Position numbers and translations under genes: made by a program
In this document: positions 9,772 to 61,681 of the stretch, in pieces
Numbering within the stretch: the first letter of the stretch is position 1
How the letters are laid out: each line of letters opens with the position of its first letter
Source: Candidatus Heimdallarchaeota archaeon
GTDB lineage: Archaea > Asgardarchaeota > Heimdallarchaeia > Heimdallarchaeales > Kariarchaeaceae
Reading direction: 5' to 3'
Assembly (NCBI GenBank): GCA_030149205.1
Contig: JASBSB010000001.1
Coordinates: forward strand, 393,142-457,141
Length of the DNA stretch: 64,000 nt
The notes under the pieces: model-generated
What the model was told of the DNA's origin: nothing
The model's database searches: none
The model's input: only the letters and a program-made list of their open reading frames with translations

Positions 9772-9781
9772 GTTTATGCAC

Positions 9782-26881: not shown

Positions 26882-27271
26882 AATTTAATTTTTTTTTATT
26901 AAGCTTATAAACTTACATTGTTAAAAAAAAATTGCTCTACCCGATCATTCGTAATTGAATTAATAATGTTTACATTTTTATATTATTATTCAGCAATTAC
27001 AAAGGAAAATTAATTTAGCTCTTGATTTTATCCTCTTTTCCTCTGTTTATAATACCCTTCAATTAATGGAGGGTTAACTAGAATTGTAAAACTCATACTA
27101 AGGTATAGGTCAAATCTATATCTAAAACAATTTATGTTGCGTTCATCGAAACTCAAAAATTATATTAATCAACCTTTAAAATATAAATTTTAGTTTAAAT
27201 TGAAAGAAGAGACTACATCAATGAAGGGCAACAACATCGTTAATATCCAGACATAAATTATTATCTGCATT

Positions 27272-29299: not shown

Positions 29300-29424
29300 T
29301 CAAGTTTAGAACAATTAACTATTATAAGAATATTATCGACATTATTAAGACCAGAGTTAAAAACTTTATAACAGTCACAATTAAGGATATATGAAATGGT
29401 ATCTTTGATAAATTTTCCCAATTT

Positions 29425-33700: not shown

Positions 33701-34105
33701 AGGCTAACTGAAAGAGGGGGGGTGTTAGGAGCAATGGAAACCCAGTATCAACGTGGTAAAATACAAGAAGAGTCATTATATTATGAGACGTTAAAAGCAA
33801 CTGGAGACCTTCCGATTATGGGAGTAAACACTTTTTTGAACCCTCATCGTAAGAGCAATACACTTGAGGTCCCCTCACTAATTCGAGCATCACACGAAGA
33901 AAAAACACTTCAAATCAATAGATTAAGAGAATTTCAGTCAAAACATAAGGATCTAGCTGTTGAGTCCCTTAAGCAATTACAAAAAGTATCAATAGAGGGT
34001 AAAAATATTTTTGAAGAGCTACTTCAAACAGTTGAGAGCTGTAGTCTTGGTCAGATAAGCAAAGCATTGTATGATGTAGGTGGAGAATATAGAAGAAATC
34101 TATAG
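30734..34105 (+). CDS. icmF: fused isobutyryl-CoA mutase-like protein (B12-binding domain + MeaB-type G-protein + acyl-CoA mutase barrel)
   Basis: N-terminal B12 domain [24 protein letters not shown]...GHNRSV. MeaB/ArgK-like P-loop [13 protein letters not shown] with a NKFE(R) motif. C-terminal ~560 aa mutase substrate domain. The domain order matches IcmF rather than split MCM + MeaB. Confidence 0.8.
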
Positions 34106-34168: not shown

Positions 34169-35596
34169 ATGGTATTATTTGCGAAGGAAATTTTTCATCA
34201 AGATTATGAAATAGATGAATGCTACTATGAAAAAGCTAGAAATTCTATCCTTCATTCTCAGGTAAAGGCATTCTTTAACTTGACAAATGATCAAATAGTT
34301 GAACGGTATTCATATTTAAACCCACATGTCAACAAGGATGAACTACATAAACTCCTCACAAAATATAAACCTGCAAACTTTCGATGGGCTGGTGCAGACC
34401 TTTTTCCTGTAACAAGTCAACAGGGAAACCGTGGTTTGTTGGTGATAGAAACAAACTCTTGTCCTTCAGGACAAAAGTCATTTCCTATGAGGGATGAGGC
34501 AGATGATTATAGAGGATATAAAACCCTTATTGAGGAGTCATTCTTACCCTACATTAAGAATAGCTCAATTGATGGAAAGGTTGCAATAATTTTTGATAAA
34601 AACCACATGGAAGCATTAGGATACGCTATAACGATTTCTGAGGCAATCAATGAATCAGTCCTACTCGTAGAGGATTACTCTAATGATATTGATTCTCCAG
34701 TCCAAATCAGAGATGGGGTAATTTTTGTTAAAGATGAAAGCTCAAATTGGATTCAGATTAAAGCAGTATTTAGATATGTTACACAGAAACCTTGGAACAG
34801 GATTCCCATACAGACTAAAACTTTGATCTACAATCCTATCATCGCCTGTCTTGCCGGAGGAAGAAATAAGTTAATTGCTGCAAAAGCTTATGACATATTT
34901 AACGGAGATTTGGCAGGATATGGCTTGAAGTTGAGTTACCCTGAAACTATTTGGGACGTATCACATGAAGAGATCCCATTATGGGTAGAGAGAATGGGTG
35001 GTAGAGCCGTAATAAAGATTCCATATTCTAATGCAGGTCAAGGAGTGTTCACCATCACAAGTGAGGATGAGCTTAATGAATTTATGGGGAAGGAGTCTCA
35101 ATATGAGAAATACATTGTACAGCCATTAATAGGACCCTCTCATTGGGAAAGAGAAAGCATTGTACAGAGGTATTTTCACTTAGGTACGATTCCTAACAAG
35201 AAATTAGAGTCATACATTTTTGACTTACGGATGATGATCTGCCATACTCCCTCAGGATACAAACCTGTGGCAATCTACGCAAGACGAGCAAAAGAGAAGA
35301 TTCATGAGGAAGTCAGGGACTCCTGGGATATGATTGGGACAAATCTATCACAAAAAATTGGAGAAAACAAATGGAAATCTGATACTTCTCGTTTACTAAC
35401 TATGGATACTAAGGAATTCAATAGGTTAGGACTTAGTTTAGACGATTTAATTGGAGGATATATTCAAACAGTTTTTGCTGCAATCGCTATTGATAGATTG
35501 TCTCAAAAATTGTTAAATGATGATTCTATGTTGGACATAGACCTCTTCAGGTCACTGAACCCTGATGATAAATTGATATCTGAAATTTTGAAATAA
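34169..35596 (+). CDS. ATP-grasp fold ligase-like protein
   Basis: The central region KLIAAKAYDIFNGDLAGYGLKLSYPE...MGGRAVIKIPYSNAGQGVFTITSEDELNEFMG...YIVQPLIG has the pre-ATP-grasp/ATP-grasp layout (K-x-n..G.P.....PvViKp..g..G.Gv..v). Starts 64 nt after icmF. Confidence 0.4.
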   Translation: MVLFAKEIFHQDYEIDECYYEKARNSILHSQVKAFFNLTNDQIVERYSYLNPHVNKDELHKLLTKYKPANFRWAGADLFPVTSQQGNRGLLVIETNSCPSGQKSFPMRDEADDYRGYKTLIEESFLPYIKNSSIDGKVAIIFDKNHMEALGYAITISEAINESVLLVEDYSNDIDSPVQIRDGVIFVKDESSNWIQIKAVFRYVTQKPWNRIPIQTKTLIYNPIIACLAGGRNKLIAAKAYDIFNGDLAGYGLKLSYPETIWDVSHEEIPLWVERMGGRAVIKIPYSNAGQGVFTITSEDELNEFMGKESQYEKYIVQPLIGPSHWERESIVQRYFHLGTIPNKKLESYIFDLRMMICHTPSGYKPVAIYARRAKEKIHEEVRDSWDMIGTNLSQKIGENKWKSDTSRLLTMDTKEFNRLGLSLDDLIGGYIQTVFAAIAIDRLSQKLLNDDSMLDIDLFRSLNPDDKLISEILK

Positions 35597-37484: not shown

Positions 37485-39245
37485 ATGTTTTTTTACCCTG
37501 AACTAAGTTTAACTTACAGAATGAAAACTAGCGAAATAACAGGAAAGGGTTTAAATTATGAGAATATACCCCCGGTTTTAACTGAGGAAGAATACTCACC
37601 AAGGGCATTATTTTTAAATCAAAATGAAGAATTTAAAGTTCAAACTGATAAAGCCCATGTATTTTTAGTTTATAACAAATCGGACAGTTCTACTCCTTGG
37701 CAAATTTTGAAAAATTCGACATCCTTTCTACTCCGGGCTGAACAGGATGGAGAGGCTCTTTTCATCTTTCCTGAGACATTAACTCTAATTTTGGACCTTC
37801 ATCTTAATGGAACAACTAAATCCATTAGAACAACTTTTGATGCAACATTAATTGAAGTCATTGCTACGCTGTTTAAATCATCAACTCCCACCACAATAAT
37901 CAAAAATTTAACAGCCAAAATTAAGATGATTCTTGAAGGATATTTTATTAGCGAAACTCAAAAATTTGAGGAAATAACTCTGGATAGTCAATTTTCAATA
38001 TCAAATGAAATGCTGGATAAGATTGAGATGAAACTTAGTCTCTATGGTTTAAAACTACTCGCGATTGAGGAAGCACCTGTAGAAGAACAAGAATCTATAC
38101 TCCTTGTTGATTTTTATGGTGAAACCCCTGAAGAGCGAGAAGAGATCAAGCCTATTCAATTCATCCCTGAAGAAAAAATGGTGAACCATGAGCCTGAACT
38201 AACACAAGAAATAGAAAATGAGAAAAAAACACCGACTGAGAAACTTCATACGGTTCCTAAGGAAATATCAAAAGAAGATTCAACTAAAGTGGAAGAAAGT
38301 TATGAATTACCCTCTGCTCCAAAATCAGAATCAATGGAAGCAGTTATGTTATCTGATGGAAAGAATGAAGATCTGCATCTAGAAGTACCTACCGCTGGTG
38401 GAGAACAATCACTATTCGAAGAAGAAATTGTAGATCAACCACCTCCTCCAGTTCCAGAGCCTTCTCAAGTAAAGAAAAAAACACAGGCACCTAAACCCAA
38501 AGTATCAAGAAGAATGAGAGGGGGTACAGTAAAGGAGACTGAAGAAATCCCCTCAATTGAGGGTCTTGATTCTTCAGAAACATTGAATGAAGAACTTTTC
38601 CCAGAGAGATTGATGGAAGCAGGTTCACCGCTGACGTCGATAAAAAACATTTCATGTACTTGGTATAATCAAATGATTGTAAATAAGACCTACCCTATTT
38701 TGCTCAAGATCTCAGACAGGGAACAGGACAAAAAAAGAAAGATGTCATCATTTATATCAGGGGAACAAATCACTCAGGAGCATCTCTCAGTTAAATTTGA
38801 TCCTGATTTAGATATACAAATCAGGGCTGAGTTTCCAGGTTGTCTTGTGACACCTCTTGATCGCACATTCTCTCCTAAGGAGAAAGACGTAATGCTTCGC
38901 TTCTATGTTACCCCTTTAGTTAAGGGAAAAGTTGATGCATCAATCACATTTATTCAAAACGGTAAAACCGTCGATTCAATACCTTTGAATGGCAAAGTTG
39001 GAGATCATCGTGTAGCAAAAATTATTTCATCTGTAGGTGTTTTAGTAAGTGTACTTCCCTCCTTTTTTGCATTCTTGTTTGGGGTAACTGTTCAAGAATT
39101 TCTCAGCAAAAGGGTTGGTTCAGACTTTTCAGTTATTTGGAACATCGGAACAATCTTTGGTGGGTTATTTTTGATCTTGCTAGGATTGATCCTGTATAGG
39201 ATGGAGTATGAAAAGTCAAAGAGGAAGACGTATTTTGAAAATTAA
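37485..39245 (+). CDS. hypothetical protein with acidic/proline-rich central linker and C-terminal TM anchors
   Basis: 586-aa ORF with globular N- and C-domains. The linker is E/P/K-rich (PPPPVPEPSQVKKKTQAPKPK). Two C-terminal hydrophobic helices. Confidence 0.4.
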   Translation: MFFYPELSLTYRMKTSEITGKGLNYENIPPVLTEEEYSPRALFLNQNEEFKVQTDKAHVFLVYNKSDSSTPWQILKNSTSFLLRAEQDGEALFIFPETLTLILDLHLNGTTKSIRTTFDATLIEVIATLFKSSTPTTIIKNLTAKIKMILEGYFISETQKFEEITLDSQFSISNEMLDKIEMKLSLYGLKLLAIEEAPVEEQESILLVDFYGETPEEREEIKPIQFIPEEKMVNHEPELTQEIENEKKTPTEKLHTVPKEISKEDSTKVEESYELPSAPKSESMEAVMLSDGKNEDLHLEVPTAGGEQSLFEEEIVDQPPPPVPEPSQVKKKTQAPKPKVSRRMRGGTVKETEEIPSIEGLDSSETLNEELFPERLMEAGSPLTSIKNISCTWYNQMIVNKTYPILLKISDREQDKKRKMSSFISGEQITQEHLSVKFDPDLDIQIRAEFPGCLVTPLDRTFSPKEKDVMLRFYVTPLVKGKVDASITFIQNGKTVDSIPLNGKVGDHRVAKIISSVGVLVSVLPSFFAFLFGVTVQEFLSKRVGSDFSVIWNIGTIFGGLFLILLGLILYRMEYEKSKRKTYFEN

Positions 39246-39296: not shown

Positions 39297-40025
39297 TTGA
39301 AATTAGTGAAGCAAAACAAACTTAGGAACATAAATACATTATTTTTTGACTTAGATGGTACACTTTTAGATCTTTCAGATGAGAATTTTGAGAAAGTATA
39401 TGCCTATGAAGCTGCAATGATTTTTAAAGATATTATTGACCCAAAAATTTTCGTTAAGTTACTTATTGAAAGCACCGTTGAAATGATGAAAAGTCGAGGA
39501 GAGAAGTTACTGATTGATGTGTTCTATGAATTTTTTTGTCCAAAGGTTGGATTAAAAGAAGATGAGGTTCAGAATCGATTCTTGAGGTTTTACGAAACCT
39601 CATTTGATAAATTAAAGTTGGTGTCAAAAAGAATTAACGGAGTTCCTGACTTAATAAGGAAACTCAATGACAGAGGTTATAAGCTGGTTTTAGCAACACA
39701 ACCTTTCTTTTATGAGTTAGCAACCATTAAAAGAATAAGATGGGCAGGATTGGAACCTGATCAGTTCTTATATTTTACCCATATTGAAAATAGTAGTGTG
39801 GCAAAACCGAACCCCCTGTATTTTGAACAACTTGCAAACATCACCAAATCAAAACCTGAAGAAATTTTAATGATAGGGAATGACTACCTATATGACTTAT
39901 CAGCAAAGAAATTAGGCATTTCTACATGGATGACCCCTCAAAATCAATCAAATCTTGAGTACAAAGATAAAATGAGCCCAGATTTTGAACTTCCACTATT
40001 AGAACTCTTAGATTTCCTACCTTAG
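39297..40025 (+). CDS. HAD-superfamily hydrolase
   Basis: Motif I LFFDLDGTLLD near the N-terminus and a C-terminal G-N-D motif (MIGNDYLYDL), the HAD catalytic signatures. Confidence 0.65.
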   Translation: MKLVKQNKLRNINTLFFDLDGTLLDLSDENFEKVYAYEAAMIFKDIIDPKIFVKLLIESTVEMMKSRGEKLLIDVFYEFFCPKVGLKEDEVQNRFLRFYETSFDKLKLVSKRINGVPDLIRKLNDRGYKLVLATQPFFYELATIKRIRWAGLEPDQFLYFTHIENSSVAKPNPLYFEQLANITKSKPEEILMIGNDYLYDLSAKKLGISTWMTPQNQSNLEYKDKMSPDFELPLLELLDFLP

Positions 40026-40597
40026 ATGATTTCACTCTCAAACTCTTCTTCTAATTCTGAACTGGTAGATAGAAGCTGACCTAGATTTTCAAATATTTCA
40101 ATTAAGTTATCATCATTTTTTATTGAATATTCATAGAGAAAAATTTCATTCGACCAAGTCTTTGAGATTTTCTCCATCAATGACTTCACATCTGATATAC
40201 TAAAGTCAGCTTCATTAGTTAAATCAATCTTGTTAACAAGAAAAACCAAAATAGGAGACCCACAATGCTTTTCGACCTGTGGGAGCCAGTCATTAACTGC
40301 GTTTAATGATACAAAATTGGTTAAATCGATCAAAAAAATTACAACAGAAGTTCCTCTTAAATACATTTCAATCAAAGATTTGTAAGAAAGTTGTGATCCA
40401 AGTTCCCAAATGCTAAACAGAAAACTATTACCTGCGTATTGCATTGGAAAACTTTCGATTTGCACTGGAGTGGTGGGGATATATTTCTCAGAAAATTTCT
40501 GATAGATGAGTTTGTTAATTAAACTAGTTTTCCCGGTTCTGGAACTACCTAATAACAAAATCTTGAATATATATTGAGTGTCCACCATTCGAACCAT
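40022..40597 (-). CDS. Ras-superfamily small GTPase (Arf/Rab-like)
   Basis: G1 LLGSSRTGKTSL, a conserved Thr in the switch-I region (PTTPV), G3-like WELGSQ (compare WDTAGQ / WDVGGQ) and G4 NKIDL. Confidence 0.75.
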   Translation of the reverse strand: MVRMVDTQYIFKILLLGSSRTGKTSLINKLIYQKFSEKYIPTTPVQIESFPMQYAGNSFLFSIWELGSQLSYKSLIEMYLRGTSVVIFLIDLTNFVSLNAVNDWLPQVEKHCGSPILVFLVNKIDLTNEADFSISDVKSLMEKISKTWSNEIFLYEYSIKNDDNLIEIFENLGQLLSTSSELEEEFESEII

Positions 40598-40661: not shown

Positions 40662-42371
40662 TCATTTTGCATAGTTTAAGATTGATTTTTCAACTTTAAA
40701 CTCTTCTGGAAGTTTTTCTAAATTCAAAATCCTCATGACTGAGGAATCAAGCGCTGTATGGTTACGAGCACTTAAAAGCTGGCCTGCCCTCATCATCAAT
40801 GTCCTTCTTTTTACGGTTTCGTCTCCTTTTTTAGGATAATCCATTACCCTGGTTCGGGTTGATCCTATCACTGCAACTAACCTATTTTCATCTCCTGAGA
40901 AGGTAAGAATAACCTTTTCATTATCATTGATTGAAAATACAATTTCTTCGGGTTTAAATTGAACTTCACTTGAACTAAGCTCACTTAACACAGATTCTAA
41001 TTGGACATCAAGACCATCTAAAATTGAGATCAGTTTTGTAGGGTTAATATTGTCAGTAATTTCATAAATAGAAGTTTGTCCACTGGTATAATCTGATTCC
41101 AAGGCACCATCTAACACATATTCACTTTCTCTAATCACGTCAAAGGTTTCAAATAAAGGAATATCAGATACTGCCTCAACTGATAATGAGTCAGCAAGAG
41201 AATTAGGCAACATATTTCGTTTTAATTTAGAAACCTGTACTTTTGTAGTAGCTCTGGTGTTTCCAGTTGGAGTGCTGTCCTCTTTTTTGAACATCCCTAA
41301 TAACTTTGCGATGAACCCCTTTTTCTGAGGAGCTGGGGGCTTAATGCTGGATTGTGTTTCATATGTATTCTCCTTTTGCTCAACCTCAATAGTAAACTCC
41401 TTTAACCAACCCTCAGCATCACTATCAACGAGTTCTAGAATACTTGTCATTTGGGTCGCATTTACCCCATCAACCTTAGTTGTTAAAATCATTGAGGGTT
41501 TAGAGCTAACATAGGGATTCCTAACTAGAATTAAATGAGAGTTATTTTCATCAAGTAAGTTCCCAGATAAGAATTGAAGTTTATAGTTTGAATCAAGTTT
41601 GGAAAGGTGAGAGTGAAGCGATTCAAGAGAACTATTACTAGGCTGTTTGTCTATATTTGAGAAACTGGAAAAAACACTTTTCCATTTTCCAGACAGGATC
41701 GCTTTTGTATCAAGATAGTTAGGGATTATAGCGTCCTTTTTCTCTTCAATCTGGTTTTCCTTGGTATATGAAATAAATTTTCTCCGACTAATTTCAACCA
41801 GATCTGCTACACTATTCACCTTGACAGATTTAGGAGAATCTTCATATTCCAAACGTAAATCCGTCCTTCTAATTGCAGCAAACAGAACCGCTAATTCCCA
41901 AAAACCGAAGTCTGAAGATTCTAAAAATTCTCTGGTATAATACAAAAACGGAGCTATAAAATTATAATGAATTCTACCATATCTGATATCCATCGGGAGT
42001 CCACGACTTGCTAAAAAAAGATCATTTTTTCGAATTTTTGAACCAAGATAATACCCTAGAGCCATTGTTTCCATGACTTTCTTGGAACTCTCATTTCTGG
42101 TCTCTAGGCCTATCTTGAAGAGTTCGAGCACACAGCTTCTTCTTTCCTCATCACTTGCACCAATTAATTCTGAAGCAGTAACTATGAAATCTGCAAGAAA
42201 TAATGCCCTTTGGGCACTTTCATCACTTTTTGATAACCCATGTTTTTCAGCAAATTCAATTAGCTCAGGAGACATGGATTCATACCTTTTCAGCCTAGTA
42301 TCTAAGTCGAATTCTGAATTAACATTCTCTCTAAGTTCACCTATCATTTGATAATTAGGAATCAAATCCAT
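40662..42371 (-). CDS. large protein with C-terminal roadblock/LC7 (MglB-like) domain; probable GTPase partner
   Basis: Lies 64 nt upstream of the GTPase on the same strand. The C-terminal LISILDGLDVQLESVLSELSSSEVQFKPEEIVFSINDNEKVILTFSGDENRLVAVIGS follows the roadblock pattern. The N-terminal ~400 aa are unknown. Confidence 0.45.
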   Translation of the reverse strand: MDLIPNYQMIGELRENVNSEFDLDTRLKRYESMSPELIEFAEKHGLSKSDESAQRALFLADFIVTASELIGASDEERRSCVLELFKIGLETRNESSKKVMETMALGYYLGSKIRKNDLFLASRGLPMDIRYGRIHYNFIAPFLYYTREFLESSDFGFWELAVLFAAIRRTDLRLEYEDSPKSVKVNSVADLVEISRRKFISYTKENQIEEKKDAIIPNYLDTKAILSGKWKSVFSSFSNIDKQPSNSSLESLHSHLSKLDSNYKLQFLSGNLLDENNSHLILVRNPYVSSKPSMILTTKVDGVNATQMTSILELVDSDAEGWLKEFTIEVEQKENTYETQSSIKPPAPQKKGFIAKLLGMFKKEDSTPTGNTRATTKVQVSKLKRNMLPNSLADSLSVEAVSDIPLFETFDVIRESEYVLDGALESDYTSGQTSIYEITDNINPTKLISILDGLDVQLESVLSELSSSEVQFKPEEIVFSINDNEKVILTFSGDENRLVAVIGSTRTRVMDYPKKGDETVKRRTLMMRAGQLLSARNHTALDSSVMRILNLEKLPEEFKVEKSILNYAK

Positions 42372-42489: not shown

Positions 42490-43569
42490 TCACATCCAAC
42501 CTTTTCGTCTAAAGTAGTAAAGTTGAATTAAAAGTATAATAATCATTCCAATCCAAAGTACAAAATACCCGTATTGAAAGCTTAATTCTGGCATATAATA
42601 AAAATTCATCCCATAGAGACTTGTCAAAAAGGTAAGGGGAATAAATATTGTCGCTATAACGGTCAGAGTTTTCATCACCTCATTCATCCTGTTGCTAATA
42701 TAGCTCATGTATAAGTCACGTAGACCTGAAAGATGATCTCTTGAGGTTTCAATAAGATCAATTAACTGAATTGTATGGTCATAAACGTCACTCCAATAAA
42801 CTCGTAATGCTTCACTCAGCAATGAATGTTGTTCCCTCCGTAGCTTTGATATTAGGTCACGGATAGGCCAAACAGAATTTCTCAATTCTATTAGATATGA
42901 TTTGTGTTCATGGATAGTCTGCTGGACTTTAAGTGTTGAGTTCACACCTTCATCTAAGTCCAATATCCTATCTTCGATTTCTTCAATGCTTAAATTGATC
43001 CTATTTAAAACATCAAGAGATTGGTCAACTGAGTAATCCAATAAAGAGAACAGAATAAACTCAAGTCCCCATTTATAATATATAGGTTTTCCCTGTTTTA
43101 GGTTAGTTACAATTGATTCAAAGTGATTGATCTTTGAGTCAGAAAATATCAATAATGTTTTATCAAGTAAAATGATTGAATACGAAACAAATGTTAATTT
43201 ATCCTCTTCAACGTTTTCATCAAATAAGAACACTCGGAAATGAACACTTAGATATTTCTCGAAAAACTCTAGCTTTGGCCTTTGATTAGTATTCAGTATA
43301 TCTTCTATCACCAGAGGGTGAATTTTATAATTTTCACAGATTTGGATCACTGTTTTAGCATCACTTTTACCCGTTACAAAGACAATGTTTTCCAAGTTCG
43401 TGGAAGTTTGACTTATTAATTCTTCAACATTGTTAGGGACCACTACACTTACTGTTTTCGAATTATTGTCCTTATGAATCAGAGTCATTTCACTTGAGTC
43501 TATCTCTTCTTCTCCAACGTATAGATAAGACCCTGGTGGTTTCCCTTTTTTTATGCCGTAGTTTGTCAA
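42490..43569 (-). CDS. corA: CorA-family Mg2+/Co2+ transporter
   Basis: C-terminal two TM helices with the signature LYGMNFYYMPE (GMN motif), preceded by a ~280-aa cytoplasmic domain. Confidence 0.75.
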   Translation of the reverse strand: MTNYGIKKGKPPGSYLYVGEEEIDSSEMTLIHKDNNSKTVSVVVPNNVEELISQTSTNLENIVFVTGKSDAKTVIQICENYKIHPLVIEDILNTNQRPKLEFFEKYLSVHFRVFLFDENVEEDKLTFVSYSIILLDKTLLIFSDSKINHFESIVTNLKQGKPIYYKWGLEFILFSLLDYSVDQSLDVLNRINLSIEEIEDRILDLDEGVNSTLKVQQTIHEHKSYLIELRNSVWPIRDLISKLRREQHSLLSEALRVYWSDVYDHTIQLIDLIETSRDHLSGLRDLYMSYISNRMNEVMKTLTVIATIFIPLTFLTSLYGMNFYYMPELSFQYGYFVLWIGMIIILLIQLYYFRRKGWM

Positions 43570-45647: not shown

Positions 45648-47789
45648 TTGGTACAATCATTGTCAATTCAAATTGAAAATATTAGTAGCAGAATTCAACA
45701 ATTTCTAATAATAGTTTTAGCGGGAGTCTATACCACAATACAGTCCCTTGTTCCTTCAACTATTAGAATACTTCCGGGTTTGGATATAACAAATCAAGGA
45801 TTTGGACTATTTGTTCTTGCAACAGGGGCAATGATATTTGGAAAGGGAGTTGGAGCAGGTTCCGCAGGTTTAGGTGTGATTTTTGACCAGTTTAAAGTTG
45901 TTCTTGATGGGTCCTCTGTCCCTAACTTGAATCTTGGGCTATTGGTCGGAACTGTAAGTTTAGGACTAGGTGCATGGTTAACAGGATTCCTTGAAAACGG
46001 TCGTACTGGAGATTTTGTTTCTTCAAGTTTTAAAGGTGTCATGTCAAAGGCGGAAATTCTTAAAGTGGGGAGAAAAACCTTGGTTTCAATAGTTGGCTTA
46101 GGAATCACCTCAAACTTTACGTATGCGTTTGGAGCTCAATTAATAGAAGGTGGAAACATCTTTGGAGCTATTACCTATTTTTTGACAACTTTCTTAGAAG
46201 ACAGCTTTGTGCTCATATTAACAGTTCCAATATCACTTTTAGCATTTGATATTACAAATGTTTACAATGAAAAAAAATCAAATTTTATAGAGCAATTAAA
46301 TCAAAAGGTGGATTATAAAATCGAGGTTTCACAATCTGCTGAAATTTTGAAGGTTTCGTTACCTGAGACTTCCTTAGTTCAAGGGAAGTGGACACCAGTT
46401 GTGGTTGAGTTTATGAATCCATCAACTGAAAAAAAGCAATATCAGGTTGAAGCAGTATTTACCACAAAATTTTATCCTCACACTGACAAAACACCTCAAC
46501 TCAAACCTGGTGAGGGATGGAAACAGACATTTTTCGTTCTCCCCAGTAAGCAGAGTTCAGTTTACGGGAGAATTAGGATAACCAGTAACAACGACATACA
46601 GTACAAATCATCAAACCCTGATGAGTCAATTGTTGAAATTACCGCTAATTCAAGAGACCCCAACACCATAATTGGTTCACTAATAGGCTTAAGTGGTGTA
46701 AATTTTGGGATTCTTGGAATTTCTGTTATTTGGGATCAGGTTTTATCATTTTTTTCTAACCCTGAATTGCTCTTATCTCAATTTCAATCTACGGTTTCAA
46801 CATTGTCTGAAGTAATTTTTGCTGAAATCTTATTATTCATTTCATTGTTATTATGGACAGTGTTTCGTACAAAGAAGGAGAAAACCCAATTTTCACAAAA
46901 GATTAGTTTTTCGAGTGATTTAGATGACCAGCTAATTCAATCGCTTAAGGCAAATTCAATAAGGATAATGCTCAAAAAATATGGAAATGGGCTAACAAGC
47001 GTTTTTCGGGTGCTTATTGGAATAAGCAGTTTAGGGTTAATCATATTTTTGGGAAACCAGGGGTATCAAGTAATTACAAATCCCACGTACACTGTTACTA
47101 ACCAAGAGTTGCTTTTTGGTTTAATTTTAGGGATGATAATTTCTTGGGTGCTCGGATTCAGAGGTTTACAGATAATTACTGAGATGAATCTCAAAAATGC
47201 AGCATATAATAATAACCCTGATGACTTTGTTCAAGAGTTCAAACCTGTTGGGGATATAAATGAAAATGAACCCAATAATTTTCTATTTAAGGTGATTAAT
47301 ACTTCTGATTTACCAGGAATAAGAATCAAATTTGAATCAACAGATTCAATTGCTCCACCTTTAATAGAACTACACATAGAACCTGGTGAGATAGCTCAAT
47401 TTAAGGTCGTAGTCACTCCTAATACAGGAAATCATAAAATTTTAGCATTAGCTTATCCGCTGTTTGATAAAAAGAAAAAATATGTGAATTTTGATGAATC
47501 TGAACCTTTTGCTAAACAGGAGCTTAGTTTTGCAGTAAATTCAAAAGGAGTCCTGGGGATGTCAAAAAAACAACAATCCCAACTTAAAGGTATTACTGCT
47601 TTGTTGACTGGTTTTACTGGATTACTGGCAGTTATCAATCAGATAGTCCCAGGAAGCAATAATTTTACGATAATTCTGGATAACTTACCTGCGCTACTGA
47701 GTTTGCAGATCCCGATTTTGGGAGCATATTTCAGCTTGAATTCTACGCTAAAAAATTGGCTAATTAAATCAGGAGAAAATGACTTATGA
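45648..47789 (+). CDS. large polytopic membrane protein with central beta-rich (Ig/CARDB-like) extracytoplasmic segment; first gene of the vWA operon
   Basis: Multiple hydrophobic helices at both ends and a ~250-aa hydrophilic beta-rich middle. Its stop overlaps the start of the next gene (ATGA). Confidence 0.45.
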   Translation: MVQSLSIQIENISSRIQQFLIIVLAGVYTTIQSLVPSTIRILPGLDITNQGFGLFVLATGAMIFGKGVGAGSAGLGVIFDQFKVVLDGSSVPNLNLGLLVGTVSLGLGAWLTGFLENGRTGDFVSSSFKGVMSKAEILKVGRKTLVSIVGLGITSNFTYAFGAQLIEGGNIFGAITYFLTTFLEDSFVLILTVPISLLAFDITNVYNEKKSNFIEQLNQKVDYKIEVSQSAEILKVSLPETSLVQGKWTPVVVEFMNPSTEKKQYQVEAVFTTKFYPHTDKTPQLKPGEGWKQTFFVLPSKQSSVYGRIRITSNNDIQYKSSNPDESIVEITANSRDPNTIIGSLIGLSGVNFGILGISVIWDQVLSFFSNPELLLSQFQSTVSTLSEVIFAEILLFISLLLWTVFRTKKEKTQFSQKISFSSDLDDQLIQSLKANSIRIMLKKYGNGLTSVFRVLIGISSLGLIIFLGNQGYQVITNPTYTVTNQELLFGLILGMIISWVLGFRGLQIITEMNLKNAAYNNNPDDFVQEFKPVGDINENEPNNFLFKVINTSDLPGIRIKFESTDSIAPPLIELHIEPGEIAQFKVVVTPNTGNHKILALAYPLFDKKKKYVNFDESEPFAKQELSFAVNSKGVLGMSKKQQSQLKGITALLTGFTGLLAVINQIVPGSNNFTIILDNLPALLSLQIPILGAYFSLNSTLKNWLIKSGENDL

Positions 47790-49585
47790 GTAAAAAACTT
47801 CTTTCTGTACTAACCTTAACCTTTATTCTGTTGGGAGCAGGGTTTACATATTATTCATTTACTACCCCAACAATTGACTTAAGTCCAGAATTTGCGGCTC
47901 AGGCAATTCAATTAACTTCTGGAGCGAACTTACTCTTTGGAGGAAATGCTTTGAAACTACTAAACAAATACGAGGGAATTGGAAAAATAACCAAGGATTA
48001 TCTTACTGATGTATTTAAATTTAATATGAAAGGGAAAAAGAACACACTTTATTACCAAAACTTAAACAATTTGATTCCAGGATATTCCAATCCCCCTAAC
48101 TTTGCATTTGACCCCACATACAATGAAAGCATATCTACTCAAGGGTTAGGATTCAACATTGCACCTTCATCTTTTATTAAAAGTTATCAAAACAAATTCC
48201 TCTCAACACCGATTGAAAGTACAGATCCTTTATCAAAGATCCCAGATAGTATGAAAGAAAATATAAATAAAACATCAAGACTGTTTGATGTTTGGAAACA
48301 AACTTTAACAGGAAATACCTCCTATTTTAATTTTGTATCAACTTCTGGCTACTCATTAAATTACCCGTTTTTCTCTCTCCCTAAGATTTATGATGGAAGA
48401 AATGAATCTTTCTACAACTCTGCGATAATTGGACAAAAAGATCTTGTAATAGTGATTGATAGATCTGGATCATTGAACAAAGATACTTTTACTGCACTTA
48501 AGAACTCAATTAAGTCAATCATAAACACCCTATCTCCATCAGACAGATTCAATATTTTAACATTTTCAGATCATGTTTCTGTTTTTTCGAATAGTTTGAG
48601 CAGTGCAACTATTAGTACAAAAATTTTAGCAGAGAAATATATAGATAGAATTAGATTAGGTGGGCTTTCAGACATTGGGATGGGATTTACTTCGGGATTA
48701 AAAATTCTGACAGATTTTGGATATCAGAGGAATAAGCGATTGTTTCTCACCTTTTCAGATGGAAAACCTACTTCAGGTGTAATTCAAAATGATTCATTAA
48801 TCCAAGAGATTGTTAGTGCAAATGGTGGAGCTAAAGCAACCCCAATATTTTACGGGATTACCAAAAATCCTAATAATGAAATGTTTACCTCCTTGGCAAA
48901 TCAGATGGGAGGGTTCTATATTAACACAAATACCACGAGTAAACTACTTAACTTGGTTCCCAACTATAATAAGCTAATAAACAATATTACTTCTGAAAAC
49001 AAAATTTGGAGTACTCCCTTTGTAAGCTCTATTAACCACAATATTTTCTCTAACTTAAGTTTTGCAATAAATTATGCTGGTCAACACTTTGGAGTTTTTA
49101 ACATCCAAGTTAAGCTATCTGAATTTTTGGAGAGTTTACAGAAGACAAAGTTGTATAATTCCCAGACTAACTTTATAATCAACACTGGAGGATACACCTT
49201 TGCTCATCCTATATTTGAAAGTCTCCAATTAAAAGACAGAATTACAAACAACCTTCAACAACCAATCGAAAATTTTACGCTAACCTCGGCCGATTTCAAA
49301 GGGATGTTGACGGATTTAGCCAAAAATAACTATAAGACCAAAATAGTTCAGAGTAATAATTTAACTAAGTTTGTGATTTCCTTATCACCGCTTGGACAAA
49401 CAGGATTGGTTTCAGGAACTATCATCCCATTAACTGAAATAATCAACCAAAACATCTTAGGTTCACTTTCTGGTCACAGACCAAATTTTGAAGGAATGTA
49501 TCTTTCCTTTGCTATTGCTGTAACCGTTGGAATAATTATCATTTTGTTAAGTAGCAGAATTCTGAAGGAGGAAACAAAACAATGA
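47786..49585 (+). CDS. von Willebrand factor A (vWA) domain membrane protein
   Basis: N-terminal signal/TM. MIDAS-type motif LVIVIDRSGSLNKDTF...SDRFNILTFSDHV...FSDGKPTSG. C-terminal TM helix. Start and stop codons overlap both neighbours. Confidence 0.65.
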   Translation: MSKKLLSVLTLTFILLGAGFTYYSFTTPTIDLSPEFAAQAIQLTSGANLLFGGNALKLLNKYEGIGKITKDYLTDVFKFNMKGKKNTLYYQNLNNLIPGYSNPPNFAFDPTYNESISTQGLGFNIAPSSFIKSYQNKFLSTPIESTDPLSKIPDSMKENINKTSRLFDVWKQTLTGNTSYFNFVSTSGYSLNYPFFSLPKIYDGRNESFYNSAIIGQKDLVIVIDRSGSLNKDTFTALKNSIKSIINTLSPSDRFNILTFSDHVSVFSNSLSSATISTKILAEKYIDRIRLGGLSDIGMGFTSGLKILTDFGYQRNKRLFLTFSDGKPTSGVIQNDSLIQEIVSANGGAKATPIFYGITKNPNNEMFTSLANQMGGFYINTNTTSKLLNLVPNYNKLINNITSENKIWSTPFVSSINHNIFSNLSFAINYAGQHFGVFNIQVKLSEFLESLQKTKLYNSQTNFIINTGGYTFAHPIFESLQLKDRITNNLQQPIENFTLTSADFKGMLTDLAKNNYKTKIVQSNNLTKFVISLSPLGQTGLVSGTIIPLTEIINQNILGSLSGHRPNFEGMYLSFAIAVTVGIIIILLSSRILKEETKQ

Positions 49586-52233
49586 ACAATAATGTAGGGA
49601 ACAATGACCCAGAAGAGAACAATAAAACTGAACCCAAAGGTAAAAAAATTGAAGCCTCATCAGAAGGGGAAAAGATTGATGAAACTACAGAGGAGCCTTC
49701 AAAACAAAATGCTGGAATCGAAACTAATACAAACGCTTCTTCAGAACCTCTTGACAGTTCAGACAGTAATACAGAAACGATAAAAGACTCACCTATAATT
49801 AGCGACACTAACCAACCGACTGATTCGAAGAAGGATGTAAGCAAGTTAGATCAAGAACATGATAATGAAGAAAAGAATCAAACTGAACTTAAGGGAGGGG
49901 ATGAGAGTACTCCATCATCACAGAATGATAAAAACTCCACTGGAGGGTCGTTCTTACAAAGCCTTGGTTCAGTAGGCAATATTTTACCTTTTCAGGTTAG
50001 AAAGTCAAAGCCTGAAGATTTAAGTCCGCAGGATCAAATAGAGGCTGCGATTAACGAAACAAAACAAAATGTACCTAAATTCTACTCAAAGACAAATTTT
50101 TCAGAAAAAACCAGGTTTCAGAAATTCAGAATAGCTACATATAAGTCTCTCTCTCTCTCGTTAATACCATTATTGATTATCTTGATCGGATTATCTTTTA
50201 ATTTGCATGCGATTCAAGGAACAGTCTTTGTCGACAACACACGTCAATACTCGACAAACTCTATTCAATATTCTAACAAATTAGCAACGCAACTAAATAA
50301 TGAATACTCAAGCTTCATAAGTTCTATTGAGAGTGAATTTCGGAACCTAAAATTTAACATTGCGAGCGATCCAACAACCTATGATATCCAAAGTTTTTCG
50401 GTTAATGAAACCGGTGCCACTCCGAACCCTCAGTTCAGCACGAAATATAACAAGATTGTTGATTATAGTGTATCTGCTTGGCAATTGTTAGCAAAACACA
50501 ATAGAACGAAATCTGTAAATGATACAGTACAACTAACTGCCCAATTTGACCCATACTTTATGACCACATACAATAAAGTTAAGGAAATTCTCTGGATAAG
50601 ATTAATTCTCGATAACGGGGTTGTACGGACTTACCCTCATTTACCAGATAATTCCTCAAATACTAACTTCCAAGCACTTCAGTGGTTCAATAAAACTAAA
50701 TCAGCATTCAGTTTCGATACATTTGTAACAGGCCTAGAAGTTGATAATATTACATCAAAATTGATTTATTCAATAACAAGTCCATATTTTAAGAATGGAA
50801 TAAAATTGGGTGTTTTGCAAGCTTCAATTGATGTAGTAGAACTAAAACAACAATTTAATTTGTTAAAGGGTAAAGGGATTACCCCCTTTTTGATGACAAA
50901 GGCTGGCCAAGGAGTCTATCATCCGAAACTTTCACTTAAGCAATTTGGTTGGAATAATAATGAGTTAAACCAGAGTATCTTAAAAATTGACCCAGTTATC
51001 AATGAGATAAATCGAACTAAAAATATCATTGGGTTAACAAACCAATTAAATGGGAGTGTTTCAGTAAATACTGTAGGTGTAACATATTGGATATTTCCGA
51101 TTACTAACACTGGTCAAGTTTTAGGACTTTACTTAGAACTTTCAACCACTCCAGTAAAGTCTCAATTCGATAGTTTTCAATTACTTGCACTCCCAATTGG
51201 AGTAGCTGTTATCCTTCTAGTTTCTATTGTTGGATTACAATTACAATCTGGATTAATTAAAATAGATAATCTTGAAAAATCGCTTAAAAGGTTTAGAAGG
51301 GCTACTAAAATTGAAGGGATATCAAATAGATTAAGGGATACCCTTACTCAAATGAGTACAGAAAATATAATTGACAAAACTGGATCAAGGGCAGAGAAGT
51401 TAATCAAAGAGAAAGGAAAAGATGCAAGAGAAAATGTGGAAGGTGAAATTTCAAGAGGTTTGGAAAAGGTGTCTTCAAACATTGATAAAGGTAAATCTAT
51501 GATCCTTGAAGAGGAAGATACCAATCTTGTTGAGGTAATTGAAAAGGATAAAATTTTGACAAAAATATTAGAATCGCTGGAAGAAAATCCGTACTTATTC
51601 CTTCAAAACAGGATAAAAATGAAGAATATCAATATTGAGGATATAAAAAATGAAAACTATTCCTCTTTAAAAAGCCTAGTTACAGGTGCAGAGAAGCTTT
51701 TAATAGCATTAATTGTAGGGCGAAGAATTGATATAGCCAAAATTTCTGATTCCTGTGAGATGAATGGAGAACAGCTAAGCGGGTTTTTCACCAGCCTCCC
51801 TCTAAATCTTGGAATCACGTTGTCAGAAGATCAAAAATCGATCATGGTAGAACAAAAATTGTTATTGGAAAACATTGAATCATTTACTTTGTACTTCAAT
51901 AAATTCCTCAAAAACCCTAAAAAATACCTTAAACTGTCAACTAGTAATAATGTTGAAAAAATAGATAAAGTTAAATCTCAAATAGAAAAGTTCTATTCCA
52001 CAATCCAAGAAAGAAACTCCATTTCATTAGATGAACTTTCAGAGATATTTCAACTCCATAAGAAACAAATAATTGAAATTTTTAGTCAGTTGAGTTCCGA
52101 CAAAAAATTTGGAATTAATTTAGAAGAAAAAACTTTGAGTATTGATGAAGATAAATTCAAATCTAACCTCTTGGACTTTGTTAAAAAATTCACTTTGATA
52201 GTAGTCACAAGATACTCTTTTATCTCCGCTTAA
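49582..52233 (+). CDS. large membrane protein: acidic low-complexity N-tail, two TM helices around an extracytoplasmic domain, coiled-coil C-terminus; third gene of the vWA operon
   Basis: The N-terminal ~150 aa are D/E/S/T/N-rich. TM at about aa 190-215 and aa 535-560. The C-terminal 300 aa are K/E-rich helical. Confidence 0.45.
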   Translation: MNNNVGNNDPEENNKTEPKGKKIEASSEGEKIDETTEEPSKQNAGIETNTNASSEPLDSSDSNTETIKDSPIISDTNQPTDSKKDVSKLDQEHDNEEKNQTELKGGDESTPSSQNDKNSTGGSFLQSLGSVGNILPFQVRKSKPEDLSPQDQIEAAINETKQNVPKFYSKTNFSEKTRFQKFRIATYKSLSLSLIPLLIILIGLSFNLHAIQGTVFVDNTRQYSTNSIQYSNKLATQLNNEYSSFISSIESEFRNLKFNIASDPTTYDIQSFSVNETGATPNPQFSTKYNKIVDYSVSAWQLLAKHNRTKSVNDTVQLTAQFDPYFMTTYNKVKEILWIRLILDNGVVRTYPHLPDNSSNTNFQALQWFNKTKSAFSFDTFVTGLEVDNITSKLIYSITSPYFKNGIKLGVLQASIDVVELKQQFNLLKGKGITPFLMTKAGQGVYHPKLSLKQFGWNNNELNQSILKIDPVINEINRTKNIIGLTNQLNGSVSVNTVGVTYWIFPITNTGQVLGLYLELSTTPVKSQFDSFQLLALPIGVAVILLVSIVGLQLQSGLIKIDNLEKSLKRFRRATKIEGISNRLRDTLTQMSTENIIDKTGSRAEKLIKEKGKDARENVEGEISRGLEKVSSNIDKGKSMILEEEDTNLVEVIEKDKILTKILESLEENPYLFLQNRIKMKNINIEDIKNENYSSLKSLVTGAEKLLIALIVGRRIDIAKISDSCEMNGEQLSGFFTSLPLNLGITLSEDQKSIMVEQKLLLENIESFTLYFNKFLKNPKKYLKLSTSNNVEKIDKVKSQIEKFYSTIQERNSISLDELSEIFQLHKKQIIEIFSQLSSDKKFGINLEEKTLSIDEDKFKSNLLDFVKKFTLIVVTRYSFISA

Positions 52234-52359: not shown

Positions 52360-53213
52360 TAGTTACGAAATAACTCAAAGTGGTTTAAGTAGCACCAACA
52401 TCATAGCTAAAGCTAAAAAAGGCGATAGTTCATATAAATTGGTTGTTCGAATTGAACGAGCTGAACTAACTTGTCAAATTATTTTTAGTGTATATAGGCT
52501 TTTAAAAGAAATTTGAGTTTCTTCCGAGGATATTTTAGGCAAACTGTAATCTCATTAGTTCTTTTATGAACCCATATTCTGTTTGGGATTTCTTTCCTGA
52601 AATTGAACTCCACAGAATAAATTACATACAAAATTTATAACTTCTCAAGAAAATTGGCTCAGTATTGGGAGAAATTCATAGCATAGAGTTCGGCAAAAGC
52701 GGATTTTTACAAATCAGAATCTAAAAATTATGAATTTTTCATTGAGTGAAAACAATATCCCCCATATTGCTGAACAATTTATCAACAATATCCCAATACT
52801 TAAATCAGATTTTAAAATTAAAGTAAAGGATTGGCTAATTTAGCAGAAAGGTCTTTTAAGCTCTGTTAATCCTATCAACTCACTAGTGGGTGATGATTTC
52901 AATGAACATAATATTCTGATGTCAGATGATGAGATAGAAAATATTTGGGTCATTGATTTGGAATTTTGTTTTTCAGGAAGTATTTATTGGGATATTGGAA
53001 ATTTTTTTAGAATTTTTAAAAATGTGAATTCTGAACAACTACTTTACTTCGAATCAGGTTATCGAGAATCTGGAAAGATTACCAAATGAATGGATCATGA
53101 TTGCAAAAATAAATGACCTAATAACATTGCTCAGTCTGTTGGAATATTCTTATGTCGATCAACAAAGAGTTGATGATGTTATGGTAATTCTTGGAAGGTA
53201 CATATCATATTAG
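52360..53213 (+). pseudogene. decayed aminoglycoside-phosphotransferase/choline-kinase-like (APH/ChoK fold) kinase gene
   Basis: Three frames together spell a kinase. N-lobe-like ...KKGDSSYKLVVRIE..., then catalytic-loop-like LVGDDFNEHNILM and IDLEFCFSGSIYWDIGNFF, then a C-terminal helical part WIMIAKINDLITLLSLLEYSY. These are interrupted by stops and frameshifts. Only a 67-aa ORF (52886-53089) survives. Confidence 0.55.
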
Positions 53214-59980: not shown

Positions 59981-61681
59981 TTAACGTCTACCTCTCCTTC
60001 TACGGATTGGCGCTTCTTCTTCTTTAATGTTTTCAACCGCTTCCTCATACATCTTCAATAATTCGACTTCTTGCTCTTTCTCAGCACCATCAGGCAATTT
60101 TTCCGCATATTTTTTCCATACTTTCAGATTCTTTTCCAATTCTGGTTTAAGTCTAAAGCCAACTGAGAGTCCAGTTTGGATAACTCTTCGAATTAGGGAT
60201 AGAAGGTCTTTCTCAGTTACCCCATAGGACTTCCAATTTTTCTTAATTTTTACTAAATCAAGTAGCTGATTTTGGTTTTTGTAAATTCTTTCACCAACTT
60301 CTTTTGATTTGATTTCCATAATTGAATAATAGACAACAGATGACCAAAAATGGAAAGGCTCTGACAGCTCTTCACGGATGTATTCTTGACCTTTTTTCCA
60401 AAATTCAGCTTCCAAATGATTAAATGCATGCACATAGGGTTCTACCTCTTTAGGGTTCTCCGTTAATCTGTTTAACATTGATTTACTAAGAACGATCTGT
60501 AGCCAAATCGATGAGATTGTACCTTTTGCCATCAGCTGTTTTGATTCTTCACCTCTTAGAAGTGGATAAAGTACCTTCTTCCAAAGCTTTCCTGAATCTT
60601 CTCGTACTGATTTTTCTAGAGCCTTATATGGAACCGACCTTAAGGAAATATGGGAGGATAATATTAGGTATAAAGTACTCGCAAGATCGAAATAAGCTTC
60701 TGGAATGTTATTCGTTAGTCTTTGGATTTCACCCAAATAGTAATTTACCACTTTAAGTCTCTGTTTATCAGGATATGGCTGATAAAGTAACATATCTAAA
60801 ACTAACGCATGAGGGAGCAATTCAAGTGCTTCTTTGGTTTCTTCGCTTAATTCAGGAACGTATGTATCTTTCTTCTCTTTAGATGAGCCATCTGCACTGT
60901 CTTCAGAGTTTTCTTCGGCTTGAAAAGAGTTTTCTGGGTAAGTTCCGGATTTAAGGATCTCTAGAAAATCTACTATAAAGGAGTATAATGTGTTGGTTCT
61001 ACCTCTAAGGTCACCATTGGTGAGAGGTTTGGAGTCTGGTTTCTCACCTTTCTCCAAATTTTCATTGTTTATGGGAATGAGTCTTTGGTTGTTGTTATCT
61101 GTTAACCATGATTTATTTTTCAATGCCTCATAGGTATAAGGGTCAAAGAAAGTATCAACAATGCTTGCTAAGGTGGGATTTGATTCCTTTAGCTTTTCAC
61201 TAAGCTCCTTTACCTTGTTTCCTTCAAATAATTTTGGAAGAATCGTAAAATAGAGTATCTCATTGACAAAAACATAAGTTAAATCTAGAGTATCTGAATC
61301 TATTTCATTTAACCAATCTCTTGCTTCTCTTGAGATTTGTTTGTACAACTTGTAAGTCTCAGATTCCTTGATTTCTTTGAATAACGATTTCAGATCAACC
61401 TCTTTGCTTCTTAAAAGGGAAAGTAGTTCATTAAGAATCACATATTTCGGAACAAAGCTTAACAAGCTCTGCTCATCGATAATAGGTTTAATTTTTTCTT
61501 CTCCAGATCGTCGTTGATCAACACGAGAACTTTCGACAATAAACATAAGTTGAGGCAACTGACTGTCTCTAACATCTGAGAATAGTGGAAGTGGGACTTG
61601 AAGCTGTTCTAAAACGCTTATAAAGAACAGATCCCTAGCTTCGGAGAATATTCGTACTGGATTTGGGAGTTCTTCAACCAT
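59981..61681 (-). CDS. hypothetical helical protein with C-terminal Arg-rich tail
   Basis: 566-aa intact ORF, mostly alpha-helical in composition. Ends PIRRRRGRR. No recognised motif. Confidence 0.4.
   Translation of the reverse strand: MVEELPNPVRIFSEARDLFFISVLEQLQVPLPLFSDVRDSQLPQLMFIVESSRVDQRRSGEEKIKPIIDEQSLLSFVPKYVILNELLSLLRSKEVDLKSLFKEIKESETYKLYKQISREARDWLNEIDSDTLDLTYVFVNEILYFTILPKLFEGNKVKELSEKLKESNPTLASIVDTFFDPYTYEALKNKSWLTDNNNQRLIPINNENLEKGEKPDSKPLTNGDLRGRTNTLYSFIVDFLEILKSGTYPENSFQAEENSEDSADGSSKEKKDTYVPELSEETKEALELLPHALVLDMLLYQPYPDKQRLKVVNYYLGEIQRLTNNIPEAYFDLASTLYLILSSHISLRSVPYKALEKSVREDSGKLWKKVLYPLLRGEESKQLMAKGTISSIWLQIVLSKSMLNRLTENPKEVEPYVHAFNHLEAEFWKKGQEYIREELSEPFHFWSSVVYYSIMEIKSKEVGERIYKNQNQLLDLVKIKKNWKSYGVTEKDLLSLIRRVIQTGLSVGFRLKPELEKNLKVWKKYAEKLPDGAEKEQEVELLKMYEEAVENIKEEEAPIRRRRGRR

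Follow-up and report, generated by a model that had tools for sequence, protein, structure and literature searches.

Three consecutive genes on the forward strand of a 64,000-nucleotide stretch of contig JASBSB010000001.1 from Candidatus Heimdallarchaeota archaeon (assembly GCA_030149205.1; this whole stretch is called the window below) encode membrane proteins that we call gA (45648–47789, 713 aa), gB (47786–49585, 599 aa) and gC (49582–52233, 883 aa). Judged from profile alignments, gB is a dCache_1 domain with a von Willebrand factor A (VWA) domain inserted in its distal module, at the site where alpha2delta and CACHD1 carry theirs, and the gA-gB-gC set is, on the same evidence, a prokaryotic, split-gene version of the alpha2delta/CACHD1 VWA-in-Cache architecture. 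This layout has so far been described only in eukaryotic alpha2delta/CACHD1-type proteins, and it may predate eukaryotes. An earlier note on this DNA, made by a model that saw only the letters and their open reading frames (ORFs), had rightly described the middle protein as a membrane-anchored VWA protein with a metal ion-dependent adhesion site (MIDAS), an N-terminal hydrophobic segment and a C-terminal transmembrane segment (TM), all of which agree with Pfam and hydropathy; it missed that, as the alignments place it, the VWA domain lies inside dCache_1, as in alpha2delta and CACHD1.

The VWA insertion in the gB Cache domain

Pfam assigns residues 219–387 of gB to VWA (4e-14) and residues 403–518 to a partial dCache_1 (8e-5), and in gB orthologues further weak VWA_N and methyl-accepting chemotaxis protein (MCP)-like PDC matches flank the VWA domain. 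Searched as a single sequence against the PDB with phmmer, gB finds alpha2delta-1 as its best match (2.6e-9), in an alignment that begins about 60 residues ahead of the VWA domain and takes in the Cache motif YD.R...Y. A profile of six orthologues reaches CACHD1 at 3.9e-33 (profile positions 156–474 against chain residues 177–536) and alpha2delta-1 at 2.8e-27 (152–476 against 152–503), each in one collinear stretch that runs over both VWA borders. Bacterial dCache structures align with the intact profile over its flanks only, and separately (7w0w residues 71–133 before the VWA domain and PctA residues 133–204 after it), but once the VWA domain is excised from the profile they align unbroken across the cut: 7w0w at 1.1e-13, Mlp37 at 3.4e-13 and PctA at 5.2e-12. 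The excised profile is also contiguous with the second, uninterrupted dCache domain of CACHD1. It is because of the collinear eukaryotic matches, together with the unbroken bacterial dCache alignment after excision, that we call gB a VWA-in-dCache_1 protein. The insertion point lies after the YD....WY motif, between YxxxxRxWY and Y-x(27-34)-D of the distal module, where Gumerov et al. 2022 (PMC8915833) locate it in alpha2delta and CACHD1, and the spacing at the junction is equal in Asgard and eukaryotic proteins, as can be seen by setting YDPRIRPWYVGAVTGAKDVVLIMDVSGSM (Asgard P0029) beside FDPRVRPWYVGAATGAKNVVLIMDISGSM (P0039, an MMETSP protist transcript).

Read along the chain, gB begins with a hydrophobic segment (residues 5–23, 47798–47854) that by hydropathy is a signal anchor or signal peptide, followed by a stalk helix and the N-terminal half of the dCache_1 distal module (25–213, 47858–48424), a region that ends in YDGRNESFY (202–210) and aligns to residues 71–133 of the MCP 7w0w and to the VWA_N region of alpha2delta. 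The inserted VWA domain occupies residues 214–399 (48425–48982) and holds the MIDAS residues D225, S227, S229, S295 and D325; the C-terminal half of the distal module and the proximal dCache_1 module follow (400–565, 48983–49480; aligned to PctA 133–204), and the chain closes with a TM anchor (570–588, 49493–49549, hydropathy 2.47) and a basic tail of 11 residues. Hydropathy and sequon counts thus give a sequon-containing extracellular body on a C-terminal membrane anchor. gB carries one dCache only, with no second one in the same polypeptide, and gave no Pfam match to VGCC_alpha2; no VIT domain was matched in it either, and VIT-VWA proteins align to its VWA part only (positions 217–400).

The MIDAS (DxSxS...T/S...D) is intact in gB and, apart from T/S exchange at its fourth position, invariant in 15 of the 15 family members, but does the Cache domain also keep the residues that contact a ligand? 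The amino-acid motif (Y, R, W, Y ... Y, D) is degenerate in the window protein, where it reads Y, E, F, Y ... F, Q, and among the family members examined it is complete only in P0027–P0029 and partial in P0022, P0023 and P0026. Because the motif is degenerate there, the ligand of the window gB is probably not an amino acid. An AlphaFold2 (AF2) model of gB from five sequences has a mean predicted local distance difference test (pLDDT) score of 46, with the VWA domain alone predicted confidently (about 80), and was not used to assign the fold; Foldseek with this model places alpha2delta-1 chains at the top (8e-14, about 400 columns), a match that is sequence-driven and weak, with a root-mean-square deviation of about 21 Å.

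Like gB, alpha2delta-1 of CaV channels (PDB 6jp8_F, 7mix_D, 8if4) carries its VWA domain in the dCache_1 distal module, right after Y-D-x-R-x-R-P-W-Y, has an intact MIDAS and is extracellular with a C-terminal membrane anchor, and the two proteins are collinear over 325 positions. Unlike gB, alpha2delta has a second dCache_1 in the same chain, with the first nested in it, as well as a VGCC_alpha2 region; its alpha2 and delta parts are joined by disulfides and it partners CaV alpha1, whereas in the Asgard set the second Cache is encoded by a separate gene (gC), no Ion_trans partner was seen among the scanned neighbours, and the gabapentin/amino-acid motif is degenerate in the window gB. CACHD1 (PDB 8s7c_A, 9eq6), the best profile match, shares with gB the VWA-in-dCache_1 domain and a single C-terminal TM; it serves as a co-receptor for other membrane proteins, which is also the working model that we propose for gB. 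It differs in having two dCache_1 domains and in its partners FZD, LRP6 and CaV3, which have no counterpart here. The MIDAS of CACHD1 is the non-canonical DxGxS, whereas that of gB is intact. Protist proteins with a single dCache_1 and a VWA insertion (PMC8915833; P0039 and relatives) are 540–650 aa long with an N-terminal signal, a C-terminal TM and a near-identical junction. Unlike the Asgard forms, which are cysteine-free and keep a recognisable proximal module, they carry Cys-rich modules at both the N- and the C-terminus and do not lie in operons.

The uninterrupted paralogue gC and the origin of the architecture

The ectodomain of gC is, by profile comparison, an uninterrupted paralogue of the gB Cache domain: compared with hhalign, the two ectodomains align end to end (97.9%, E 3.7e-13), with the VWA domain as a single clean gap. 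The gene set was compared across related contigs (L001, L003, L004, L005, L006 and L009), and gC orthologues, which are present in L001, L003, L004 and L009, match dCache_1 at 3e-9 to 7e-9; a gC profile finds Mlp37 (4e-7) and PctA in the PDB. Hydropathy and composition bear out the acidic low-complexity N-terminal region, the two TMs and the long helical cytoplasmic region that had been noticed earlier in the third protein, but the 320 residues between the TMs had escaped notice; as aligned, they form a dCache_1 domain that has its paralogue in gB.

The acidic N-terminus of gC (residues 1 to about 150, 49582–50031) is variable or absent in orthologues, and is placed in the cytoplasm because basic residues stand just upstream of TM1 (190–212, 50149–50217; by hydropathy). 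TM1 is followed by the extracellular dCache_1 (213–533, 50218–51180) and by TM2 (534–556, 51181–51249, hydropathy 2.82), so that TM1-dCache_1-TM2 forms a classical sensor layout. Beyond it lie a charged helical cytoplasmic linker (557–668, 51250–51585), called from its composition and from weak apolipoprotein, phasin and YtxH-type matches, and two modules of about residues 669–770 and 771–870 (51586–52191) with a helix-helix-helix-wing pattern. These modules are probably winged-helix-like, judging from that pattern and from matches that are all sub-threshold though mutually consistent: an NmtR/ArsR helix-turn-helix (HTH) domain at 0.008 (and NmtR at 0.028), MarR at 0.077 and Z-alpha at about 1. 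BLASTP between the two modules gave no match, and the gC of L009 has only the first of them. Compared with the bacterial dCache_1 sensors PctA (5ltx), Mlp37 (6iop) and 7w0w, to whose ligand-binding domains both gC and the VWA-excised gB align contiguously, gC has the same TM1-sensor-TM2 arrangement but no MCPsignal, HisKA or GGDEF domain, ending instead in the linker and the winged-helix-like modules, while gB has no output domain; in both gB and gC, stalk helix and first sheet are separated by an additional, VWA_N-like segment.

Two other proteins, both from metagenomes, combine Cache domains in one chain. In P0024 (993 aa) a gB-like VWA-Cache part is followed by a gC-type dCache (hhalign 99.6%, E 1.7e-23) and a TM, and the chain ends in a CPxC zinc ribbon; over about 700 residues this protein runs collinear with two-Cache proteins of the metazoan type. 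P0034 (863 aa) has two Cache domains separated by TMs, without a VWA domain.

The gB profile was searched against 1.84 billion representatives, and the best 150 of its 11,173 matches (E up to 1e-3) were examined. Among these, after about 20 family members, the next matches that cover both flanks as well as the VWA domain are eukaryotic: an Oscarella sponge CACHD1-like protein, an MMETSP protist transcript, alpha2delta/CACHD1-like proteins of 1,000–1,470 aa and Cys-rich proteins of the 540–650-aa protist type; VIT-VWA proteins score comparably, on the VWA domain alone. The motif-intact Asgard members are 30–38% identical to the eukaryotic proteins over 280–400 residues, with E-values down to 5e-50. 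No bacterial VWA-in-dCache protein occurs among the same best 150 matches, and a metagenome scan with the Asgard gB profile, which was saturated, gave no close relatives, its best loci being eukaryotic (in L020 the neighbouring genes are Hsp90, CLC and a full-length ABC transporter, and introns occur in L016).

How the same insertion came to be in both groups can be read in more than one way. Every eukaryotic dCache_1 protein has been reported to have the VWA insertion, which was inferred to have arisen around the last common ancestor of eukaryotes (LECA), after transfer of the domain from Bacteria (Gumerov et al. 2022, PMC8915833), and archaeal and eukaryotic Cache domains have been attributed to horizontal transfer from bacteria (Upadhyay et al. 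2016, PMC4822843). We tentatively raise the possibility, to which we give rather less than an even chance, that gB and gC are of a prokaryotic ancestor type: the VWA domain would have been inserted into a duplicated dCache_1 in Asgard archaea before LECA and inherited vertically, and a fusion like that in P0024 would have produced the two-Cache form. Acquisition of gB by Asgard archaea from a eukaryote, which would say nothing on where alpha2delta itself came from, is suggested by the eukaryotic identity of the closest relatives outside the family (among the best 150 matches, at the identities just given) and by the small size of the gB family, about 20 clusters at E below 1e-30. We nevertheless think such a transfer unlikely: in a rough midpoint-rooted neighbour-joining tree, without support values, the Asgard and eukaryotic sequences form one clade each and are not nested, the Cys-rich modules found in protist and metazoan forms are missing from the Asgard proteins, and gB stands in an archaeal operon beside a paralogue in which the same unusual Cache variant is uninterrupted. 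Because gB adjoins that paralogue in an archaeal operon, duplication and insertion within the archaeal lineage is the simplest account.

An insertion with equal spacing in Asgard archaea moves the question of origin into prokaryotes, where it can be tested, and some family members keep the full amino-acid/gabapentin-type pocket. Were the ancestor-type account true, the module would be a new eukaryotic signature protein, and its original job, as a co-receptor for gA, a membrane-tethered regulator or both, would indicate what alpha2delta did before its recruitment by voltage-gated calcium channels. For biochemistry, the Asgard gB family also supplies a major drug target in a simple form with one Cache domain and no cysteines, and its partners gA and gC may reveal the ancestral role of the alpha2delta/CACHD1 co-receptor class. 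Our literature search, which was incomplete, found no paper that ties alpha2delta, CACHD1 or VWA-Cache proteins to Asgard archaea, so that an earlier description is possible; a survey of Asgard transporters makes no mention of alpha2delta, VWA or Cache.

The gA-gB-gC cassette and its possible function

In Asgard archaea the three genes gA, gB and gC form a conserved membrane module. The order gA-gB-gC is common to L001, L003, L004 and L009, and L005 and L006 show gA-gB only, their contigs ending inside or just after gB, so that the order is identical wherever a contig reaches far enough; at least five other Asgard contigs share it. These contigs are assigned to Candidatus Heimdallarchaeota archaeon, and one gB-family member is annotated as a VWA domain-containing protein of a Promethearchaeota archaeon; both groups of relatives lie within the Asgard kingdom Promethearchaeati. 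The window proteins are 51% (gA), 37% (gB) and 31% (gC, over 730 residues) identical to their L001 counterparts, and gA, the best conserved of the three, has five relatives at 36–51% identity. A word search found one close relative of gB, where the exhaustive profile search found the clusters mentioned above; in a collection of 15 billion proteins the window proteins are singletons, and no paralogue of any of the three was found elsewhere in the window.

Both internal junctions have the form that the earlier note had read in them. Each is a 4-nt ATGA overlap, in which the start codon of one gene contains the stop codon of the gene before it, with a GGAG/AGGAGG-type ribosome-binding motif about 10 nt 5′ of the start: AGGAG precedes the gB start and gA stop (junction 47772–47789, overlap 47786–47789), and AGGAGG precedes the gC start (junction 49566–49585, overlap 49582–49585). 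The lengths and coordinates of the three ORFs were likewise exact, and orthologues stand in the same order elsewhere; since the DNA of the window has a G+C content of only about 34%, ORFs of 600–880 codons are far beyond chance. The start codon of gA in the ORF list is TTG. Four-nt overlaps recur in L001, L003, L004 (at the gA/gB junction only), L005 and L009; the exceptions are at the gB/gC junction, an 8-nt overlap in L001 and a gap in L004 that probably reflects a mis-called start. From this spacing, the three genes are probably a co-transcribed unit, with translational coupling probable. A sigma-70 promoter and terminator scan gave nothing above background, the model not being applicable to archaea, and Rfam and tRNA scans of the window returned no matches.

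gA matches nothing in Pfam, NCBIfam, PADLOC or the PDB sequences, and its Pfam and PDB searches stayed empty at permissive thresholds. Hydropathy and AF2 secondary structure (from a low-confidence model) give about ten TM segments and a hairpin; the model, built from a six-sequence alignment, has a mean pLDDT of 44.5, and its secondary structure is consistent, but it was not used to infer a fold. The low AF2 confidence reflects the small size of the family, which does not allow deep alignments. Residues 52–86 (45801–45905) are a Gly-rich pair of short helices (FGLFVLATGAMIFGKGVGAGSAGLG..., AF2 helices H51-64 and H66-86) in which F64, G65, K66, A73 and G76 are invariant in the orthologue alignment and whose flanking loops are poor in K/R, and this segment may be a re-entrant hairpin. 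Two beta-rich domains of seven AF2 strands each, residues 206–339 (46263–46664) and 507–648 (47166–47591), lie on the same side of the membrane as the K/R-rich loops 115–142 and 407–450, with the K/R-poor loops opposite (means over six orthologues). They contain 0.25 and 0.7 N-glycosylation sequons per 100 aa, respectively, similar to the cytoplasmic tail of gC (0.26), while the ectodomains of gC and gB contain 3.6 and 1.5. Because they lie on the K/R-rich-loop side and are as sequon-poor as the gC tail, both beta-rich domains are probably cytoplasmic, which by these simple rules is the simplest consistent topology. The first protein was thus rightly taken to be polytopic and beta-rich, though with two inserts, while the extracytoplasmic position given to its insert does not agree with these rules. 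An internal duplication of gA (beta domain 1 against 2, with flanking TMs) was considered and is unsupported (hhalign E about 0.1).

The function that we favour, at somewhat better than even probability, is an extracellular sensor or co-receptor complex. gB, which has no cytoplasmic domain, would act as an extracellular co-receptor that pairs with gC through its stalk and Cache domain, and its MIDAS metal would clamp an acidic residue, either from a ligand or from a partner loop; a candidate is E167 of gA, which is invariant and placed in a short external loop. This pairing is proposed because of the P0024 fusion, the paralogy of the two Cache domains and the translational coupling. Since the cytoplasmic tail of gB is only 11 residues long, any signal from gB must exit through a partner, and it could cross the membrane by way of gC TM2 to the helical linker and winged-helix-like modules, or by way of gA, or both; from its strong conservation and its probably cytoplasmic beta domains, gA may be the functional core.

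A surface VWA domain with an intact MIDAS is equally compatible with adhesion, and several other observations weigh against the sensor/co-receptor function. The window gB, lacking the ligand-contacting motif residues, might have a non-functional Cache pocket, and gA, with no detectable relative of known function in Pfam or among PDB sequences, has a role that is a guess and a topology drawn from hydropathy, the positive-inside rule and sequon counts. The winged-helix matches of the gC tail are below significance thresholds, and no recognised output domain (MCPsignal, HisKA, GGDEF, kinase or HTH) was matched in gC by Pfam or NCBIfam. The AF2 models of gA and gB are of low confidence, and the contacts proposed among gA, gB and gC are deduced from sequence. 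If the cassette encoded a surface adhesion complex, gB would bind a matrix or partner-cell ligand with its MIDAS VWA domain, an adhesin raised on a Cache-like stalk, with gA and gC serving as membrane scaffold only; the VWA domain faces outward with its complete and invariant MIDAS, the ectodomains are sequon-rich like glycosylated archaeal surface proteins, and many VWA relatives are adhesive (integrin I domains, anthrax receptor, ITIH), to which the degenerate Cache pocket may be added. Against this, there are two dCache_1 domains, a fold that overwhelmingly serves to sense small molecules (PMC4822843, PMC8915833), the full amino-acid-binding motif is retained in some family members, gA is the most conserved of the proteins, and gC has a long conserved tail with winged-helix-like modules that a scaffold would not need. 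We therefore regard adhesion as improbable. The earlier suggestion of an uncharacterised surface or adhesion complex holds as far as "uncharacterised" goes, and adhesion is possible, but the two Cache domains, the linker and the winged-helix-like tail favour sensing or co-reception.

The homology and collinearity of gB with alpha2delta and CACHD1 raise a different alternative to the sensor/co-receptor function, since alpha2delta serves CaV alpha1: gA would conduct ions or solutes, and gB, with gC, would bind its short external loops through the MIDAS and control its assembly or gating. gA, the best conserved of the partners, is polytopic and has a Gly-rich hairpin that is putatively re-entrant, the tight translational coupling suggests stoichiometric assembly, and genes for divalent-cation transporters are found close by: in the window that of CorA, 2 kb upstream (42490–43569, − strand), and beside the L009 cassette that of a CDF protein (Cation_efflux, 6422–7357, − strand). 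We nonetheless consider a channel or transporter unlikely: searches of Pfam, NCBIfam and the PDB sequences gave no channel or transporter family for gA, an Ion_trans gene was not found among the scanned neighbours in the window and five related loci, and CACHD1 also has non-channel partners (the FZD5/LRP6 complex, PDB 8s7c), so that channel association is not family-wide. The CorA and CDF neighbours, moreover, are not conserved, and the opposite strand encodes them.

The absence of a MoxR or BatA-type ATPase, which the earlier note had pointed out, holds on closer search. The three genes also stay neighbours in other archaea, and neither outcome that the note had named as refuting its reading was observed. 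Like Bat and vWA-MoxR operons, the cassette has a membrane-anchored MIDAS VWA protein in an operon; terminally TM-anchored VWA proteins are typical of Bat operons, and BatB VWA domains are among the fold matches of gB. Here, by contrast, the VWA domain is within a Cache domain, an insertion architecture unlike that of BatA/B, and there are no TPR or BatC-E partners and no MoxR AAA+ ATPase. A MoxR/AAA gene is absent from the 34 window ORFs scanned with Pfam and from five related loci (the gene tables of L001–L006 and the scanned ORFs of L009), and gA, gB and gC gave no PADLOC match at E up to 0.01. With no MoxR/AAA gene and no PADLOC match, an overlooked VWA-MoxR, BatA/BatB-type or anti-phage VWA system is rejected as extremely improbable.

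Neighbouring genes and the rest of the window

In three related loci the gene directly 5′ of gA, on the same strand, encodes a protein of about 700 aa with Big_7 and Exo_endo_phos (EEP nuclease/phosphatase fold) domains (L001 448–2568, L003 7805–9931, L004 6483–8567). The window, L005 and L009 lack this gene, and it may be an optional fourth member of the cassette. Downstream of the L009 cassette lies a 577-aa protein with a CheW-like domain (8713–10446, + strand); its position and those of the cation transporter genes named above are not conserved, and their presence may be coincidence.

In the window, the genes 5′ of the operon are on the other strand and encode a methyltransferase, an alpha/beta hydrolase, CorA, a 569-aa protein of unknown kind and a Ras/Arf-family small GTPase. 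The last of these (40022–40597, − strand; Ras/Roc/Arf family, Ras 9e-25) is 5 kb upstream of the operon, beside the 569-aa protein, and is a typical Asgard "eukaryotic signature" gene. On the 3′ side, about 1 kb of broken phosphotransferase-like fragments is followed by a glycosyltransferase gene. The fragments at 52730–53213 (+ strand) are short ORFs in different frames that resemble pieces of an aminoglycoside/choline-kinase-type phosphotransferase (for example NEHNILMSDDEIENIWVIDLEFCFSG), and by this pattern they are probably a decayed pseudogene.

Farther away, the window carries FEN1 and TrmB genes, a carboxyltransferase gene (17045–18601, − strand) and a gene for a 1,123-aa fusion of B12-binding, MeaB-like GTPase and methylmalonyl-CoA-mutase parts, of the IcmF type (30734–34105, + strand). 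The G+C content falls to 26% at 26–28 kb, against the window mean, and this stretch adjoins unannotatable ORFs (27272–29299, − strand) and an N6/N4 DNA methylase gene (29425–30318, − strand); the region 26000–30318 may be a restriction-modification or mobile island. Six long ORFs of 475–874 aa have no Pfam match (9782–12406 on the − strand, 24083–25690, 34169–35596 and 37485–39245 on the + strand, and 40662–42371 and 59981–61681 on the − strand), and the window is unusually rich in orphan proteins.

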